Shown: positions 1,392 to 20,712 of the stretch, in pieces | How positions within the stretch are numbered: position 1 is the first letter of the stretch | Layout of the letters: every line of letters starts with the position of its first letter | IMG/VR virus record: IMGVR_UViG_2939521961_000002 | DNA: 47,124 nucleotides | Reading direction: 5' to 3' (one strand) | From: a virus | Lineage: Duplodnaviria > Heunggongvirae > Uroviricota > Caudoviricetes | Translations under genes and position numbers: made by a program | The notes under the pieces: model-generated | The model's input: the letters and a program-made list of their open reading frames with translations, nothing else | Database searches by the model: none | Told to the model about the DNA's origin: nothing

Positions 1392-1641
1392 GGTTACCTC
1401 TGCTTTTTGAACGCATGTCACGTAACTTCTTAATGTGTTCTGCCGTTTCGATCTCTTCTGCTATCCGATCTGCATCAGCTTTATTCACAGGTTCAAAGTC
1501 ATGATTAAAGCGGAACATGCTGGCGATACATGTTCTGCCTTTTCGGATGTAGTGAACTTTGTTGTGGGTAGAACGCAGGATTTTGCAGGGAGTGCCGTGG
1601 TGGTCGACGTACCAGGTGTTAGGAAAAATGATTCTGAACAT
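1363..1641 (-). CDS. Hypothetical early-left protein (92 aa)
   Basis: ORF with GAGG 9 nt upstream of ATG; same orientation as pL operon; no family recognised. Confidence 0.4.
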   Translation of the reverse strand: MFRIIFPNTWYVDHHGTPCKILRSTHNKVHYIRKGRTCIASMFRFNHDFEPVNKADADRIAEEIETAEHIKKLRDMRSKSRGNHGIIQPHTR

Positions 1642-2640: not shown

Positions 2641-3321
2641 TCATCGCCATTGCTCCCCAAATACAAAACCAATTTCAGCCAGTGCCTCGTCCATTTTTTC
2701 GATGAACTCCGGCACCATCTCGTCAAAACTCGCCATGTACTTTTCATTCCGCTCAATCACGACATAATGCAGGCCTTCACGCTTCATGCGCGGGTCATAG
2801 TTGGCAAAGTACCAGGCATCTTTTCGCGTCACCCACATGCTGTACTGCACCTGGGCCATGTAAGCCGATTTTATTGCCTCGAAACCACCGAGCCGGAATT
2901 TCATGAAATCCCGGGAGGTAAACGGGCATTTCAGTTCAAGGCCGTTGCCGTCACTGCATAAACCATCGGGAGAGCAGGCGGTGCGCATACTTTCGTCGCG
3001 ATAGATGATCGGGGATTCAGTAATATTCACGCCGGAAGTGAATTCAAACAGGGTTCTGGCGTCGTTCTCGTACTGTTTTCCCCAGGCCAGCGCCTTAGCA
3101 TTAACTTCCGGAGCCACACCGGTGCAAACCTCAGCCAGCAGGGTGTGGAAGTAGGACATTTTCATGTCAGGCCACTTCTTTCCTGAGCGGGGCTTTGCTA
3201 TCACGTTGTGAACTTCTGAAGCGGTGATGACGCCGAGCCGTAATTTGTGCCATGCATCATCCCCCTGTTCGACAGCTCTCACGTCGATCCCGGTACGCTG
3301 CAGGATAATGTCCGGTATCAT
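2641..3321 (-). CDS. exo: Lambda exonuclease (Red alpha)
   Basis: 226-aa product matches phage lambda Exo from memory ([40 protein letters not shown]...GFVFGEQWR); overlaps bet stop as in lambda. Confidence 0.95.
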
Positions 3322-3842: not shown

Positions 3843-4169
3843 ATGACTAAAAATACTCGTTTTTCCCCCGAAGTCCGTCAGCGGGCGATTCGTATGGTTC
3901 TGGAAAGTCAGGATGAATATGACTCACAGTGGGCGGCAATTTGTTCCATTGCCCCAAAGATTGGCTGTACGCCGGAGACTCTGCGTGTCTGGGTTCGCCA
4001 GCATGAGCGGGATACCGGGGGCGGTGATGGTGGGCTCACCAGTGCTGAACGTCAGCGTCTGAAAGAGCTGGAACGTGAAAATCGTGAACTGCGCCGCAGT
4101 AACGATATCCTTCGCCAGGCTTCCGCTTATTTTGCGAAGGCGGAGTTCGACCGCCTCTGGAAAAAATGA
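3843..4169 (+). CDS. IS3-family transposase OrfA (HTH)
   Basis: 108 aa [30 protein letters not shown]...; leucine-zipper-like C-terminus; overlaps orfB by 4 nt at an A-rich site typical of -1 frameshifting. Confidence 0.85.
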
Positions 4170-5056
4170 TGCCACTGCTGGATAAGCTGCGTGAGCAGTA
4201 CGGGGTCGGACCGGTATGCAGCGAACTGCATATTGCCCCGTCAACGTATTACCATTGTCAGCAACAGCGACATCATCCGGATAAACGCAGTGCCCGTGCG
4301 CAGCACGATGACTGGCTGAAGAAAGAGATACAGCGCGTATACGATGAAAATCACCAGGTATACGGTGTGCGTAAAGTCTGGCGTCAGTTGTTACGGGAAG
4401 GTATCAGAGTGGCCAGATGCACTGTGGCACGTCTCATGGCAGTTATGGGACTTGCCGGTGTTCTCCGGGGTAAAAAGGTCCGCACTACCGTCAGCCGGAA
4501 AGCCGTTGCCGCATGCGACCGCGTAAACCGTCAGTTCGTGGCAGAACGTCCAGACCAGTTGTGGGTGGCTGATTTTACCTGGGTAAGCACATGGCAGGGC
4601 TTCGTTTATGTGGCGTTCATCATTGATGTGTTCGCCGGATACATCGTGGGATGGCAGGTCTCATCATCCATGGAAACAACATTCGTGCTGGATGCACTGG
4701 AGCAGGCGTTGTGGGCCCGTCGGCCGTCCGGCACAATCCATCACAGTGATAAAGGTTCTCAGTATGTATCGCTGGCCTACACGCAGCGGCTTAAGGAAGC
4801 CGGATTACTGGCATCAACAGGGAGTACTGGCGACTCGTATGACAACGCGATGGCTGAGAGCATCAATGGTCTTTACAAAGCGGAGGTAATACACCGTAAT
4901 AGCTGGAAAAACCGGACAGAAGTGGAACTGGCCACACTAACGTGGGTGGACTGGTATAACAATCGACGATTGCTGGAAAGGCTGGGCCATATTCCTCCGG
5001 CAGAAGCAGAAAAAGCTTATTATGCTTCCATCGGAAATAATGATCTGGCAGCCTGA
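4166..5056 (+). CDS. IS3-family transposase OrfB (DDE integrase core)
   Basis: 296 aa with DDE-type catalytic core (…WVADFT…HSDKGSQY…YDNAMAES…). Confidence 0.85.
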
Positions 5057-10903: not shown

Positions 10904-11251
10904 TTAAAGCTCAGAAAGCTGTGATAATATTTTTTCTGGAGTGGTTTCGTTGGAAATGCTAAATAATACAGCACCTTTGACTGATTCATCTCTCATTTCA
11001 ATTTCACATGAATTATGGTTGTATGAGATTGCATAATTTTTTAATGTTCTTTCGCTTTGCCACCACACCATATTTGCAAGACTTCCGTTATACGTTCTTA
11101 TCTCGATTGATCCGGGCAGGGCTTTCCAGATAACACCTCCTAGCAATGTAAGAGCGGCTGCACCAACATTTTTTGCATGATGGTTAGAACGTTCCATTAC
11201 CCCTTCAGCATAACGATGAAGAATCTCTATGTCAGTCGCTTTGATAGTCAT
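10904..11251 (-). CDS. Hypothetical orphan protein (115 aa) in AT-rich island
   Basis: Reverse-oriented relative to replication genes; about 30% GC on hand count; candidate extended -10 (TGcTATATT) about 50 nt upstream on the minus strand; no family recognised. Confidence 0.5.
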   Translation of the reverse strand: MTIKATDIEILHRYAEGVMERSNHHAKNVGAAALTLLGGVIWKALPGSIEIRTYNGSLANMVWWQSERTLKNYAISYNHNSCEIEMRDESVKGAVLFSISNETTPEKILSQLSEL

Positions 11252-11480
11252 GTTATTTCCATGTAATTGCTGTGTGAAACGTAGTGTTAGTTAGGTGTTA
11301 GCAGAATATAGCATCAAAGTCGAAACCGGTAGAAAAAATATTGGTGATTATTTCGCTGCATTTGGAACTGGAACAACAATGATTATTAGCATGATTGCTT
11401 TTTCCAGTCATAAGAATGAGTCGTGTTAATTTTTTCTATTCAATAGGAAATTATCATGTCATCAGAATATGAACAACTAC

Positions 11481-11572
11481 GGTGACTTCTGCGCTAAACG
11501 GGGACGTTTATGCGCACATACAATCCAAACTCTCTTCTCCCTCCACAGATGCAGAAATACACCTGCGATTTT
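11481..11572 (+). repeat. 92-bp direct repeat, copy 1 (5' part of a small ORF)
   Basis: GGTGACTTCTGCGCTAAACGGGGACGTTTATGCGCACATACAATC...CACCTGCGATTTT; about 5 mismatches with copy 2 at 13803..13894. Confidence 0.85.
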
Positions 11573-11650
11573 TTGCATTCGGTGTTTTTGGCAGCCAAGA
11601 ACAGGGAGTCTCTGTTTGTCTGGCGGCTAAAGGTGATATGGAAATCGTGA
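11510..11650 (+). CDS. Small ORF (46 aa) initiated inside repeat copy 1
   Basis: ATG 6 nt after [26 protein letters not shown]...; N-terminal 21 codons shared with the small ORF at 13832. Confidence 0.3.
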
Positions 11651-11729
11651 TGTCTTAGCCTAAAGTAGTTGCAACAGTTGGAGCGATTATGGTGGTAGTA
11701 GTGATCATCGCGCCCCCCATATGCAAGGG

Positions 11730-11759
11730 TTGACGACATTATTTATCCGGCGCTATATT
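11730..11759 (+). promoter_or_regulatory. Putative sigma70 promoter upstream of the Bro-N gene
   Basis: TTGACG (11730..11735), 17-18 nt spacer, CTATAT/TATATT (11753..11759). Confidence 0.4.
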
Positions 11760-11819
11760 CTGTGCGTTGCCGCAAAATCGGCACACGGGATTGGCGTCCC
11801 GGACATCAAAACGACGCAT

Positions 11820-11840
11820 AACCGCGTTCGCGGTTTTTTT
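11820..11840 (+). terminator. Hairpin plus T7 run in the leader (possible attenuator)
   Basis: AACCGC-GTTC-GCGGTT followed by TTTTTTT, about 55 nt downstream of the putative promoter and upstream of the Bro-N start. Confidence 0.35.
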
Positions 11841-12003
11841 ATGCGCAGTGCACGTCTACACAAAAATTATGGTGGGCTGTGTGAGGGCTTCTTCGGAAGC
11901 GCCGGATTTCGTTTTGACCGGTTACGCCAACCTTGCACAGTCCACCACCAGTCGATTGGCGTCGTCGGTGGTGATAGCTCAAATTCAAAACGAGATTATC
12001 GCT

Positions 12004-12612
12004 ATGGTCACTCAGCTCGCATTCCGCGATGTAAAATTCACTCCTATAAATCACAACAACCAGATCTGGTTTACCAGCAAAGAATTGGCGGCAGCATTAA
12101 AATATGCCAGCACCAAAGCAGTAACCGACATCTACAACAAAAATATTGATGAGTTTACTGACGGAATGTCTCAGGTCGTCGAATCAACGACCTCAGGAAA
12201 TTATCGTAAGAAGACTCGCATTTTCTCCCTCCGTGGCGCCCATCTGATCGCCATGTTCGCCCGCACTCCTGTGGCCAAAGAATTCCGCCGCTGGGTGCTG
12301 GATATTCTCGATCGAGAAATTCAACAATCCCCAATCACAAAACAATTCACTGATAACGAACTTTGCACACTTGCTTGGTTATGGCGGGCAAGTGACACAA
12401 TGTTAACCGCTTGCCAAAACGTCACTCCGCTTCTTCAGGTAGCAGAACACCGCGAAGCCGGTCGCTTCACTTCAATCGAACAAGAATATCCCCGGATACT
12501 CAATAAGGCACAGGCAATCCTTGCCAGAGAAACGGCACATGTAAAATTCCGGCCGTGGCAGGATGATAAGTGGAGTCGAGTATTGACGCATTTACGTTCT
12601 GAACGGCTGTAA
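12004..12612 (+). CDS. Bro-N domain protein (antirepressor-like)
   Basis: N-terminus MVTQLAFRDVKFTPINHNNQIWFTSKELAAALKYASTKAVTD...RIFSLRGAHLIAMFARTPVAKEFRRWVLDIL fits the Bro-N pattern; start uncertain (in-frame ORF extends to 11767). Confidence 0.6.
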   Translation: MVTQLAFRDVKFTPINHNNQIWFTSKELAAALKYASTKAVTDIYNKNIDEFTDGMSQVVESTTSGNYRKKTRIFSLRGAHLIAMFARTPVAKEFRRWVLDILDREIQQSPITKQFTDNELCTLAWLWRASDTMLTACQNVTPLLQVAEHREAGRFTSIEQEYPRILNKAQAILARETAHVKFRPWQDDKWSRVLTHLRSERL

Positions 12613-12911: not shown

Positions 12912-13328
12912 ATGAATAAAAACGACCTTGAAGCATTATCTGACACTAGGCTTAATGAGGCCAAATGCTTGCTTGATCATGGCTTTTTTCATGGTGCATA
13001 TTATCTTTGTGGGTATGCAGTTGAATGTGCATTGAAGGCCTGTATTGCCAAGTCATTTTTACAACATGAGTTTCCAAACAAAAAAGTCGTAAATGATTCA
13101 TATACTCATGATTTGTCGCAACTTCTCAAAATTGCCAACTTACATCAAATTTTGATTGCTGACGCAAAAAATGATGTTTCGTTGGAGATTAACTGGTCGG
13201 TCGTTAAAGACTGGAGCGAGCAATTTAGATACGACAATAACATAAGTAAAGCTATGGCCGAACAATTGTTTGATGCTGTAGGTGACCAAAATTCTGGAGT
13301 TTTGAAATGGGTAAAAGCACACTGGTAA
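12912..13328 (+). CDS. HEPN-like domain protein (138 aa)
   Basis: Helix GAYYLCGYAVECALKACIAK plus THDLSQLL and FRYDNN resemble conserved HEPN helices; about 32-37% GC; stop overlaps the next ORF. Confidence 0.5.
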   Translation: MNKNDLEALSDTRLNEAKCLLDHGFFHGAYYLCGYAVECALKACIAKSFLQHEFPNKKVVNDSYTHDLSQLLKIANLHQILIADAKNDVSLEINWSVVKDWSEQFRYDNNISKAMAEQLFDAVGDQNSGVLKWVKAHW

Positions 13329-13708
13329 TCGGCAGAGAGTTGACAAAAGATATGGAATTCTCAGGTCAATTTTTGTTAAAAAAACTCAAGTTACAGAATT
13401 TAACTATTGATGCTGCAATGTGGTTTTATTACCCAGATCTATCTTGGAGATATATTTTAGTTATCAGTGACTTCTCAGAACGTGGGCCGGCAGAAATATA
13501 TAGAAAAATCAGTGAGATAAATAGAAATAGCATATCAAAAAAGTATAAGCCGATACCATTAGAAGCAATTGAGGCTAAGGGGGATTCAGCTTTTGTTTAT
13601 AAAATGTTAAAAGGATTTGCTAGAGTCAACGATGGTAAAGTTCGCGTTTCTAATTCTATGGTAAATGGTTTAGAAATCGTTGACTGTCTGATCTATGAGT
13701 TAAAATAA
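13307..13708 (+). CDS. Hypothetical protein (133 aa) translationally coupled to the HEPN-like gene
   Basis: ATG 8 nt after GGAG, overlapping the upstream ORF by 22 nt; no nucleotidyltransferase GS/DxD motif seen; no family recognised. Confidence 0.5.
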   Translation: MGKSTLVIGRELTKDMEFSGQFLLKKLKLQNLTIDAAMWFYYPDLSWRYILVISDFSERGPAEIYRKISEINRNSISKKYKPIPLEAIEAKGDSAFVYKMLKGFARVNDGKVRVSNSMVNGLEIVDCLIYELK

Positions 13709-13802
13709 GAAATCTCTTGCTGGGTATCATTATTGTTTAAATGACTTTTGATTTTCAATAATCAACTTGTCATAATTAAGTCACCGGAGTTTGAACTCCT
13801 CC

Positions 13803-13894
13803 GGTGACTTCTGCGCTAAACGGGGACGTTTATGCGCACATACAATCTAAACTATCTTCTCCCGTCACAGATGCAGAAATGCACCTGCGATTTT
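13803..13894 (+). repeat. 92-bp direct repeat, copy 2 (5' part of the small ORF preceding ybcN/ninB)
   Basis: Matches 11481..11572 with about 5 mismatches; preceded by a 10-bp-stem hairpin whose 3' arm lies inside the repeat. Confidence 0.85.
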
Positions 13895-13933
13895 CTTTAT
13901 CCAGCGTTTGACCTCTGCGGAGGTGAAGCGTGA
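13832..13933 (+). CDS. Small ORF (33 aa) coupled to ybcN/ninB
   Basis: ATG after GGGGA; stop TGA overlaps the GTG start of the next gene (GTGA). Confidence 0.3.
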
Positions 13934-19498: not shown

Positions 19499-20389
19499 TC
19501 AGGCTGCCAGATCATCGTTTCCGATGGAAGCATAATAAGCTTTTTCTGCTTCTGCCGGAGGAGTATGGCCCAGCCTTCCCAGCAATCGTCGATTGTTATA
19601 CCAGTCCACCCACGTTAGTGTGGCCAGTTCCACTTCTGCACGGTTTTTCCAGCTCTTACGGTGTATTACCTCCGCTTTGTAAAGACCATTGATGCTCTCA
19701 GCCATCGCGTTGTCATACGAGTCGCCTGTACTCCCTGTTGATGCCAGTAATCCGGCTTCTTTTAGTCGCTCCGTATAGGCCAGTGACACATACTGAGAGC
19801 CTTTATCGCTGTAATGGATGGTGCCAGACGGACGACGGGCCCACAACGCCTGCTCCAGCGCATCCAGCACGAATGTCGTTTCCATAGACGATGAGACCCG
19901 CCCCCCCACGATGTATCCGGCAAACACATCAATGATAAACGCCACATAGACGAAGCCCTGCCATGTGCTGACGTAAGTAAAATCAGCCACCCACAGCTGG
20001 TCAGGACGTTCTGCCACGAACTGACGGTTTACGCGGTCACCTGTGGCAACGGTTTTCCGGCTGACGGTAGTGCGGACCTTTTTACCCCGGAGAACACCGG
20101 CAAGTCCCATAACCGCCATGAGGCGCGCCACTGTACATCTGGCCACCCTGATTCCTTCCCGTAACAACTGACGCCAGACTTTACGCACACCGTACACCTG
20201 ATGATTTTCATCGTATACGCGCTGTATCTCTCTCTTCAGCCAGTCATCGTGCTGCGCACGGGCACTGCGTTTATCCGGATGATGTCGCTGTTGCTGACAA
20301 TGGTAATACGTTGACGGGGCAATATGCAGTTCGCTGCATACCGGTCCGACCCCGTACTGCTCACGCAGCTTATCCAGCAGTGGCATCAT
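19499..20389 (-). CDS. IS3-family transposase OrfB, copy 2
   Basis: 296 aa; near-identical to 4166..5056 product with several substitutions. Confidence 0.85.
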
Positions 20390-20712
20390 TTTTTCCAGAG
20401 GCGGTCGAACTCCGCCTTCGCAAAATAAGCGGAAGCCTGGCGAAGGATATCGTTACTGCGGCGCAGTTCACGATTTTCACGTTCCAGCTCTTTCAGACGC
20501 TGACGTTCAGCGCTGGTGAGCCCACCATCACCGCCCCCGGTATCCCGCTCATGCTGGCGAACCCAGACACGCAGGGTCTCCGGCGTACAGCCAATCTTTG
20601 GGGCAATGGAACAAATTGCCGCCCACTGTGAGTCATATTCATCCTGACTTTCCAGAACCATACGAATCGCCCGCTGACGGACTTCGGGGGAAAAACGAGT
20701 ATTTTTAGTCAT
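20386..20712 (-). CDS. IS3-family transposase OrfA, copy 2
   Basis: 108 aa identical in length to 3843..4169 product. Confidence 0.85.

Follow-up and report, generated by a model that had tools for sequence, protein, structure and literature searches.

We examined positions 11730–12612 of a viral DNA of 47,124 nucleotides (nt) (Caudoviricetes; IMG/VR record IMGVR_UViG_2939521961_000002). We refer to the whole stretch as the window; it derives from Shiga-toxin-producing Escherichia coli, is a lambdoid prophage and is 100% identical to strain E2865. The locus carries a gene of the antirepressor type and, upstream of it on the same strand, a promoter, a short RNA of the IsrK family that ends in a terminator, and a C4 antisense RNA. 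Two short sites complementary to the C4 RNA, a1 and b1, precede it and two more, a2 and b2, follow it. The coordinates of all these features are collected in Table 1.

The antirepressor-type gene and the RNAs upstream of it

The gene encodes a protein in which Pfam recognizes a Bro-N domain (residues 15–101, expectation value E = 1e-13, 52.2 bits vs. a threshold of 25.6) and a P22 antirepressor C-terminal domain, P22AR_C (residues 111–181, E = 7.8e-17, 61.6 bits vs. a threshold of 22.4). The PHROG "anti-repressor Ant" families match it as well, with a best E of 9.6e-56. These assignments bear out the antirepressor type that an initial annotation, made from the letters of the DNA, had proposed for a Bro-N open reading frame (ORF) about 160 nt past a hairpin. 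The ATG at 12004 lies 161 nt past the T run of that hairpin and the frame is open to 12612. The RefSeq protein WP_001415151.1 starts at the position equal to this ATG.

In the window the frame is also open further upstream, from a TTG at 11767 to 12612, and exactly 45 codons separate the ATG at 12004 from a conserved AUG (11869) in the 5′ end of the C4 RNA. The true start of the protein could then be TTG 11767 or ATG 11869, and the hairpin and the RNA region would be coding, an outcome that the initial annotation itself had raised against its view of the hairpin. However, the extension has no Pfam match, and in most homologues the antirepressor frame is closed 1–50 nt before the ATG. Protein similarity begins at residues 1–5 of the 202-amino-acid (aa) form, and an open stretch of 79 codons is not rare by chance. 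Both upstream starts were rejected, and we regard them as extremely improbable. As the upstream ORF is not conserved in other loci, the extension is best seen as a chance open frame over structured RNA.

The hairpin with a T7 run, described initially as lying about 55 nt past a promoter, begins 60 nt past the −10 hexamer and ∼54 nt past a putative transcription start near 11766. It terminates a small RNA (sRNA) of the IsrK type, since the Rfam isrK match (64.1 bits vs. a curated threshold of 50) spans 11768–11840. Where the initial annotation had offered regulated readthrough or a short non-coding RNA, the second part holds at this locus and partial readthrough is documented for the homologue in the prophage Gifsy-1 (PMC4825925). 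There, transcripts can stop at the IsrK terminator or continue through it; IsrK thus occurs on its own as a short RNA and also within a longer mRNA, of which it forms the 5′ part, and it is bound by Hfq (PMC4825925).

The same region reaches 40.6 bits (E = 5.7e-9) with the Rfam family c4-a1b1 (RF03163), under the curated threshold of 46.7, and membership of that family by score was rejected. Its layout is that of c4-a1b1, with a1 inside the second hairpin, b1 directly 3′ of it and both complementary to the cognate C4 RNA; the homologues in Gifsy-1, a Shiga toxin 2a (Stx2a) phage and P1 exceed the threshold. Across 25 loci, 93.7% of the alignment cells in the two hairpins are paired, and compensatory changes are seen in nine of their 12 pairs.

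The roughly 160 nt between the terminator and the gene do not form a simple leader, as was first assumed, but hold the C4 RNA and the sites a2 and b2. The Rfam C4 model matches over its full length (1–87) with 82.5 bits vs. a threshold of 45. Its predicted fold has the closing stem typical of the family, which encloses two hairpins (−42.4 kcal/mol, z = −5.0). Among 41 sequences, 98.7% of the cells in its helices are paired and 24 of 27 pairs show compensatory changes. By alignment with the annotated 77-nt c4 RNA of P1, mature C4 would comprise ∼11871–11949; the annotated P1 c4 (444–520) falls within the Rfam C4 match in P1 (438–523). The 5′ end of P1 c4 is reportedly processed by RNase P.

Table 1. 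Features of the locus, with positions in the window. The last column gives the median of the longest complement to the cognate C4 RNA in 38 related loci.
Feature	Position	Strand	Description and basis	Median complement
Sigma-70 promoter	11730–11759	+	−35 TTGACG 11730–11735, 18-nt spacer, −10 TATATT 11754–11759; 10 of 12 consensus positions	
IsrK-family short RNA (c4-a1b1 equivalent)	11768–11842	+	Rfam isrK (RF01394)	
Short-RNA hairpin 1	11768–11772/11779–11783	+	Predicted fold	
Short-RNA hairpin 2	11786–11791/11796–11801	+	Predicted fold; followed by a single-stranded stretch, then the terminator	
a1 site UUGGCGU	11791–11797	+	Loop and 3′ side of hairpin 2; exact 7-nt complement of a′	7 nt
b1 site UCAAAACGA	11806–11814	+	Exact 9-nt complement of the b′ loop	8 nt
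Alternative hairpin GACGC/GCGUU, candidate anti-terminator	11813–11817 with 11824–11828	+	Shares nucleotides with b1 (3′ end) and with the terminator (5′ arm and loop)	
Intrinsic terminator	11820–11842	+	6-bp stem AACCGC/GCGGTT with 4-nt loop, 11820–11835; U7 (T7 11836–11842)	
C4 antisense RNA	11865–11952	+	Rfam C4 (RF01695)	
C4 helix P1	11870–11886/11931–11947	+		
C4 helix P2	11887–11891/11896–11900	+		
C4 helix P3	11901–11905/11918–11922	+		
b′ recognition sequence UCGUUUUGA	11909–11917	+	In the 12-nt P3 loop of C4	
a′ recognition sequence ACGCCAA	11924–11930	+	Single-stranded junction 3′ of P3	
a2 target UUGGCGU	11956–11962	+	4 nt past C4	7 nt
b2 target	11985–11997	+	Exact core 11985–11993; pairing extends to 13 bp	9 nt
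Antirepressor-type gene	12004–12612	+	202 aa; Bro-N and P22 antirepressor C-terminal domains; Pfam, PHROG, RefSeq	

Complementary sites and their co-variation in related loci

The arrangement downstream of C4 is the one by which the C4 family is recognized: the exposed a′ and b′ sequences complement a2 and b2, and b2 lies at the ribosome-binding site (RBS) of the antirepressor gene, which has the same orientation as C4. It spans −19 to −7 relative to the ATG. The predicted b′:b2 duplex (−14.8 kcal/mol) is stronger than the b′:b1 duplex (−10.4 kcal/mol). The b 9-mer occurs three times only in the 47-kb window, as b1, as b2 and, on the other strand, as b′, and the a2…b2 pattern occurs once, with none expected by chance. 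Searched with this pattern and the 9-mer, the window yielded no additional C4 targets.

A genome search for relatives of the protein gave 80 loci, which are spread over many genera. Nine of them served to build a C4 model, and this model found a C4 RNA 50–150 nt upstream of the gene in 36 of the 80. Together with the window and phage PhiR26_1 they make up a set of 38 loci with 26 distinct a′ and 32 distinct b′ sequences. Relative to C4, the complements lie at about −74 to −81 (a1), about −58 to −63 (b1), +1 to +8 (a2) and +31 to +51 (b2). For non-cognate pairs the mean is ∼4.3 nt, and no more than 0.6% attain the cognate median (Table 1). All four target sites co-vary with a′ and b′ across the set. 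The b2 site usually ends 7–11 nt before the ATG and contains AGGA or GAGG, overlapping the Shine-Dalgarno sequence in nearly all loci. In PhiR26_1 (L002), b2 (CTACTCAA, 3005–3016) lies on codons 2–4 of the antirepressor gene and not on the Shine-Dalgarno region. Among 41 loci, 28 show stronger binding to C4 by b2 than by b1 and 11 show the opposite (Wilcoxon p ∼ 0.04; the loci are related), which lends weak support to b2 being the stronger binder.

The promoter and the terminator keep their places as well. Thirty of 35 related loci have a promoter matching at least nine of 12 consensus positions at a constant distance from a1, in most cases 31 nt from the end of the −10 hexamer. In 35 of the 38 loci, b1 is followed, before C4 begins, by a hairpin with a T run, whose stems vary in sequence but stay paired. 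The TTGACG/TATATT promoter that the initial annotation had assigned to the Bro-N gene as its own is thus confirmed in position. On a plainer explanation of the locus, the gene would stand alone, the hairpin would be a common leaky terminator or an attenuator in its leader, and the short transcript would be functionless; the promoter and terminator alone, as unremarkable consensus matches, would fit this. But two sites of the short RNA co-vary with the C4 recognition sequences across genera, its two hairpins are conserved and co-varying, and a homologous RNA is active in trans (PMC4825925). We consider a functionless transcript very unlikely.

The a′ sequence (UACGCCAA) is identical in the window, PhiR26_1, Salmonella phage SW-37, the Stx2a phage and Gifsy-1. 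These five lambdoid copies keep a′ and carry five different b′ loops, which suggests that the b′ loop is what would set specificity. Through the common a′, partial cross-talk among co-resident prophages could occur.

Some relatives depart from this layout. In a Mannheimia locus (L021, 1270–1347) and in the Pasteurellaceae/Vibrio loci L032, L034, L046, L065, L073, L074 and L080, the upstream element matches Rfam AaHKsRNA82 and not isrK, a1 lies at −117 to −128 from C4 and the terminator 64–75 nt before C4. This element appears to be the counterpart of IsrK/c4-a1b1 in these groups. In Erwinia phyllosphaerae (L004), a relative 53% identical to the window protein has no C4; a P22-type sar RNA is found at its 5′ end instead (1414–1482, minus strand, 44.6 bits vs. 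43). The same cargo gene is thus found under two unrelated antisense controls.

A proposed switch and alternatives to it

The elements in Table 1, their exact complementarity, a geometry like that of P1 and the co-variation of the sites across genera are observed at this locus. Quite probably, it is an RNA switch of the type of P1 immI and Gifsy-1 isrK that silences a prophage antirepressor. Its transcript ends, processing, direction of control and protein target would then be as follows. Transcription would start near 11766 from the promoter, which is apparently operator-free. Most transcripts would end at the terminator, giving an IsrK-like RNA of ∼75 nt that exposes a1 and b1. Transcripts reading through would contain C4, then a2 and b2, and then the Bro-N/P22AR_C gene, and C4 would probably be excised from this precursor as in P1. 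Pairing of b′ (in the P3 loop) and a′ (in the junction) with b2 and a2 would mask the ribosome-binding region, so that translation of the antirepressor is blocked. The short RNA, with a1 and b1 as decoys, would titrate C4, as in the Gifsy-1 homologue with its identical a sites. If the short RNA rose relative to C4, the antirepressor would be made; presumably it would inactivate a lambdoid repressor and promote induction.

Control of the promoter by a repressor was considered and rejected. In a sequence search of the region around 11640–11775, neither a LexA box nor a palindrome was found, and no k-mer of 8 nt or more is common to this region and the OR region of the prophage. An operator-free promoter fits the reported abundance of IsrK and STnc1160 in lysogens, where both are strongly expressed under every condition tested (PMC7067206). 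The isrK promoter of Gifsy-1 (ttgacacaaacagttatccggggctatatt) is near-identical to that of the window. It drives transcription of the operon in lacZ fusions, and its start sites have been mapped (PMC4825925).

Gifsy-1 also provides the genetic data closest to this locus. Its long RNA is translationally silent, and IsrK supplied in trans raises anrP translation 139-fold and induces the prophage (PMC4825925). Two compensatory mutation pairs, G28A/C162U and G31A/C159U, were published (PMC4825925). With numbering that begins at the first base matched by Rfam isrK, the a1 site of Gifsy-1 (UUGGCGU) contains G28 and G31 and its a′ (ACGCCAA) contains C159 and C162, and G28:C162 and G31:C159 are exact a1:a′ base pairs. 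By alignment, the Gifsy-1 +1 is this same first base, 7 nt past the −10 hexamer, a placement that is supported because the published positions then land exactly on a1 and a′.

The published Gifsy-1 model, taken as it stands, offers another explanation: the short RNA binds an inactive long transcript in trans and opens it, the RBS of orf45, a small ORF beginning at the AUG within C4, is freed and the antirepressor is translated by coupling to orf45, with no free antisense RNA involved. Mutations of the orf45 stop and start codons lower activation by IsrK (PMC4825925, Table 1C), almost all loci keep the AUG in the 5′ end of C4, and in the window the 45-codon frame from 11869 runs into the Bro-N ATG. 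As this frame is stop-free, however, it would give an N-terminally extended protein and not coupling. The ORF from the AUG within C4 is 2–46 codons long and in differing frames across loci; it is unconserved, and in most cases a long distance separates its end from the start of the antirepressor. The compensatory changes in the helices show that this region behaves like structured RNA, and b2, which occupies the RBS of the antirepressor itself, co-varies with the loop of C4. A stable processed RNA, STnc1160, is found at the equivalent position in Salmonella (PMC4825925). We therefore think it unlikely that coupling without an antisense RNA accounts for this locus.

A somewhat better candidate, though still a minority view, is that a1 and b1 act chiefly in cis, as the sensor of an antisense-controlled attenuator. 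Binding of C4 to nascent b1 would prevent the candidate anti-terminator (Table 1), so that the terminator forms; with little C4, readthrough would follow. The short RNA would largely be a by-product, and C4 and the antirepressor would be under negative feedback. The alternative hairpin has a predicted energy of −5.5 kcal/mol, and two of 200 shuffled sequences fold equally well. An equivalent hairpin of 4–5 bp, in two co-varying sequence classes, overlaps b1 and the 5′ arm and loop of the terminator in 24 of 25 enterobacterial loci. In P1 the case is clearer than in the window, as CCGCA can pair either with UGCGG beside b1 or with UGCGG before the U run. Moreover, expression of a transcriptional fusion in Gifsy-1 rose 8-fold with IsrK in trans, and this possibility was put forward by the authors of that work as well (PMC4825925). 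On the other side, the hairpin is short and weak and has only 2–3 nt in common with the terminator stem, and in ∼7.5% of trials per locus an equivalent arises from shuffled upstream sequence. Being related, the loci are not independent, and the segment is so highly conserved that there is little true covariation. The 8-fold effect could also be explained by relief of Rho polarity.

Returning to the decoy switch that we prefer, some points weigh against it. By consensus matching, the region has nine promoter-like sites (10.5 expected from shuffled sequence) and nine terminator-like sites (6.1 expected), so neither element stands out beyond chance in this way; we hold both to be real because they are conserved across related loci and not because of their match to consensus. 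The protein has no sequence similarity to P1 Ant1 and is 31% identical to Gifsy-1 AnrP over 54 residues, and the antirepressor activity attributed to it comes from family annotation. With protein homology nil or slight, the tie to the P1 and Gifsy-1 systems rests on the RNA module and not on the cargo. The P1 operon has the ORF icd between b2 and ant, and ant is expressed there in dependence on icd being translated, whereas the window has no intervening ORF; repression of its antirepressor must therefore be direct, through b2 on the gene's own RBS. Moreover, the short RNA and C4 issue from one promoter. Finally, mutations of a1 in cis in Gifsy-1 raise basal expression (PMC4825925), which a pure decoy model does not predict, and a1 and b1 therefore probably have a second role in cis. 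An attenuator would explain both this and the 8-fold transcriptional effect. We tentatively consider a dual role, in which a1 and b1 would exert negative feedback on readthrough in cis and titrate C4 in trans, as a possible though less than even prospect. If it is true, the long-unexplained a1 and b1 sites of P1 gain a function, and Gifsy-1 IsrK is recast as a c4-type circuit in which orf45/STnc1160 is C4 and the mutated pairs are a1:a′.

Prophage context and comparison with known systems

The module lies between the replication gene P and ybcN, and only the protein is annotated at the locus in RefSeq. Strain E2865 and O157:H7 strains carry it with 100% identity, and the queried stretch is at least 80% covered in 172 of 5426 complete genomes. 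Related RNA modules of ∼73% identity are common in Stx-converting phages (Stx1 and Stx2). Antirepressors can induce prophages without RecA-mediated cleavage and act across co-resident prophages, so RNA switches of this kind bear on the induction of toxin phages. Rfam C4 and isrK matches in O157:H7 EDL933 have been listed earlier (PMC5331693).

The surroundings of the module contain several further elements. A direct repeat of 162 nt with 81% identity (11426–11587 and 13748–13909) flanks the antirepressor module together with a HEPN gene pair, and part of it matches the phage 82 record X92588, annotated as "orf33 / possible regulator-binding site". This bracketing by a repeat that partly matches X92588 suggests that recombination between such boundary sequences brought the 2.3-kb block, as a cassette, into the nin region. 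The pair consists of a HEPN-domain protein (12912–13328, plus strand, Pfam E = 3e-6) and an overlapping 133-aa ORF without a Pfam match (13307–13708, plus strand); both match PHROGs of unknown function and could be a toxin-antitoxin or defence pair. Between P and the antirepressor module lies a 115-aa ORF that matches the integron cassette protein family VCH_CASS14 (10904–11251, minus strand, E = 5.7e-20). Two ALIL frameshift pseudoknots with equal scores and opposite orientation (4124–4240, plus strand; 20315–20431, minus strand) imply that one IS3-family insertion sequence is present twice, ∼16 kb apart, on either side of the early region of the prophage. Rfam IS009 has a full-length match at 46883–47081 (plus strand, 227.8 bits).

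Of the known systems, immI of P1 and P7 has its elements in the same order as the window: promoter, a1, b1, hairpin with a U run, C4, a2, b2 and start codon. The P1 GenBank record annotates a1, b1, c4, a2, b2 and icd, and the Rfam scan of P1 gives c4-a1b1 and C4. In both P1 and the window, a2 follows C4 at 4 nt and b2 at 33 nt, and the start codon lies 10 nt past b2; the distances from C4 are counted from the annotated end of mature c4 for P1 and, for the window, from where the Rfam C4 match stops. The two share the C4 fold, and both have an antirepressor as cargo. The two differ in a′ and b′, in their antirepressors, which are unrelated in sequence, and in the host element, a plasmid prophage for P1 and the nin region of a lambdoid prophage for the window. 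A promoter of the P1 operon is overlapped by an operator for the primary repressor, but no such C1-type operator was found by sequence search at the window promoter (11640–11775). In P1, c4 represses ant, and Rho-dependent polarity is said to be part of this repression, as the P1 GenBank annotation also indicates.

The Gifsy-1 isrK-orf45-anrP-isrJ operon likewise has an IsrK RNA with a terminator, a C4-family RNA and then an antirepressor. In Gifsy-1 the Rfam matches are isrK, which overlaps c4-a1b1, then C4 and, past the antirepressor STM2616, isrJ; in the Stx2a-converting phage they are isrK/c4-a1b1 and C4. Matches to isrK and c4-a1b1 also overlap in that phage and in a Lelliottia locus. The a1, a′ and a2 sequences of Gifsy-1 and the window are identical, whereas the b sites differ, the b′ loop being CGGUGA in Gifsy-1 and UCGUUUUGA in the window. 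The antirepressors are of different families, the module follows Q in Gifsy-1 and lies between P and ybcN in the window, and the window has no isrJ downstream. In position, isrJ is similar to an sRNA-Xcc1 match in the Stx2a phage (L164, 3280–3363, 75.7 bits), which lies ∼140 nt past a 121-aa ORF after C4; nothing comparable follows the window gene. Hershko-Shalev et al. (2016) called the region after IsrK orf45/STnc1160 and likened it to the CI RNA of P4, not to c4 (PMC4825925). The orf45/STnc1160 region of Gifsy-1 (L166, 34131–34329, minus strand) is a C4-family RNA by its Rfam score of 69 bits. In the literature searched we found no link between IsrK/STnc1160 and the c4 system, and the single paper there that mentions both IsrK and c4 RNA handles them as separate systems.

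Other systems are more distant. The c4-a1b1 motif of Weinberg et al. (2010; PMC2864571) has the two hairpins of the window, with a1 in the second and b1 directly 3′; as defined, it excludes the terminator. In the sar-ant system of P22 immI, a small RNA controls translation of an antirepressor of the Bro-N/P22AR type, as proposed for the window, but sar is made from the opposite strand across the ant RBS and has no sequence or structure in common with C4; an Rfam scan of the window gave no sar match. The CI RNA of P4, with seqA and seqC, was named as a structural analogue by Hershko-Shalev et al. (PMC4825925) and is, like C4, a processed leader RNA that pairs with sites upstream and downstream of itself. 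It causes premature termination of transcription of the replication genes and does not block an RBS (PMC4825925).

Taken together, the locus is an unannotated new copy of a known type of switch and not a new kind of system. Its value lies in a correct annotation and in a unified reading of the IsrK and c4 literatures.

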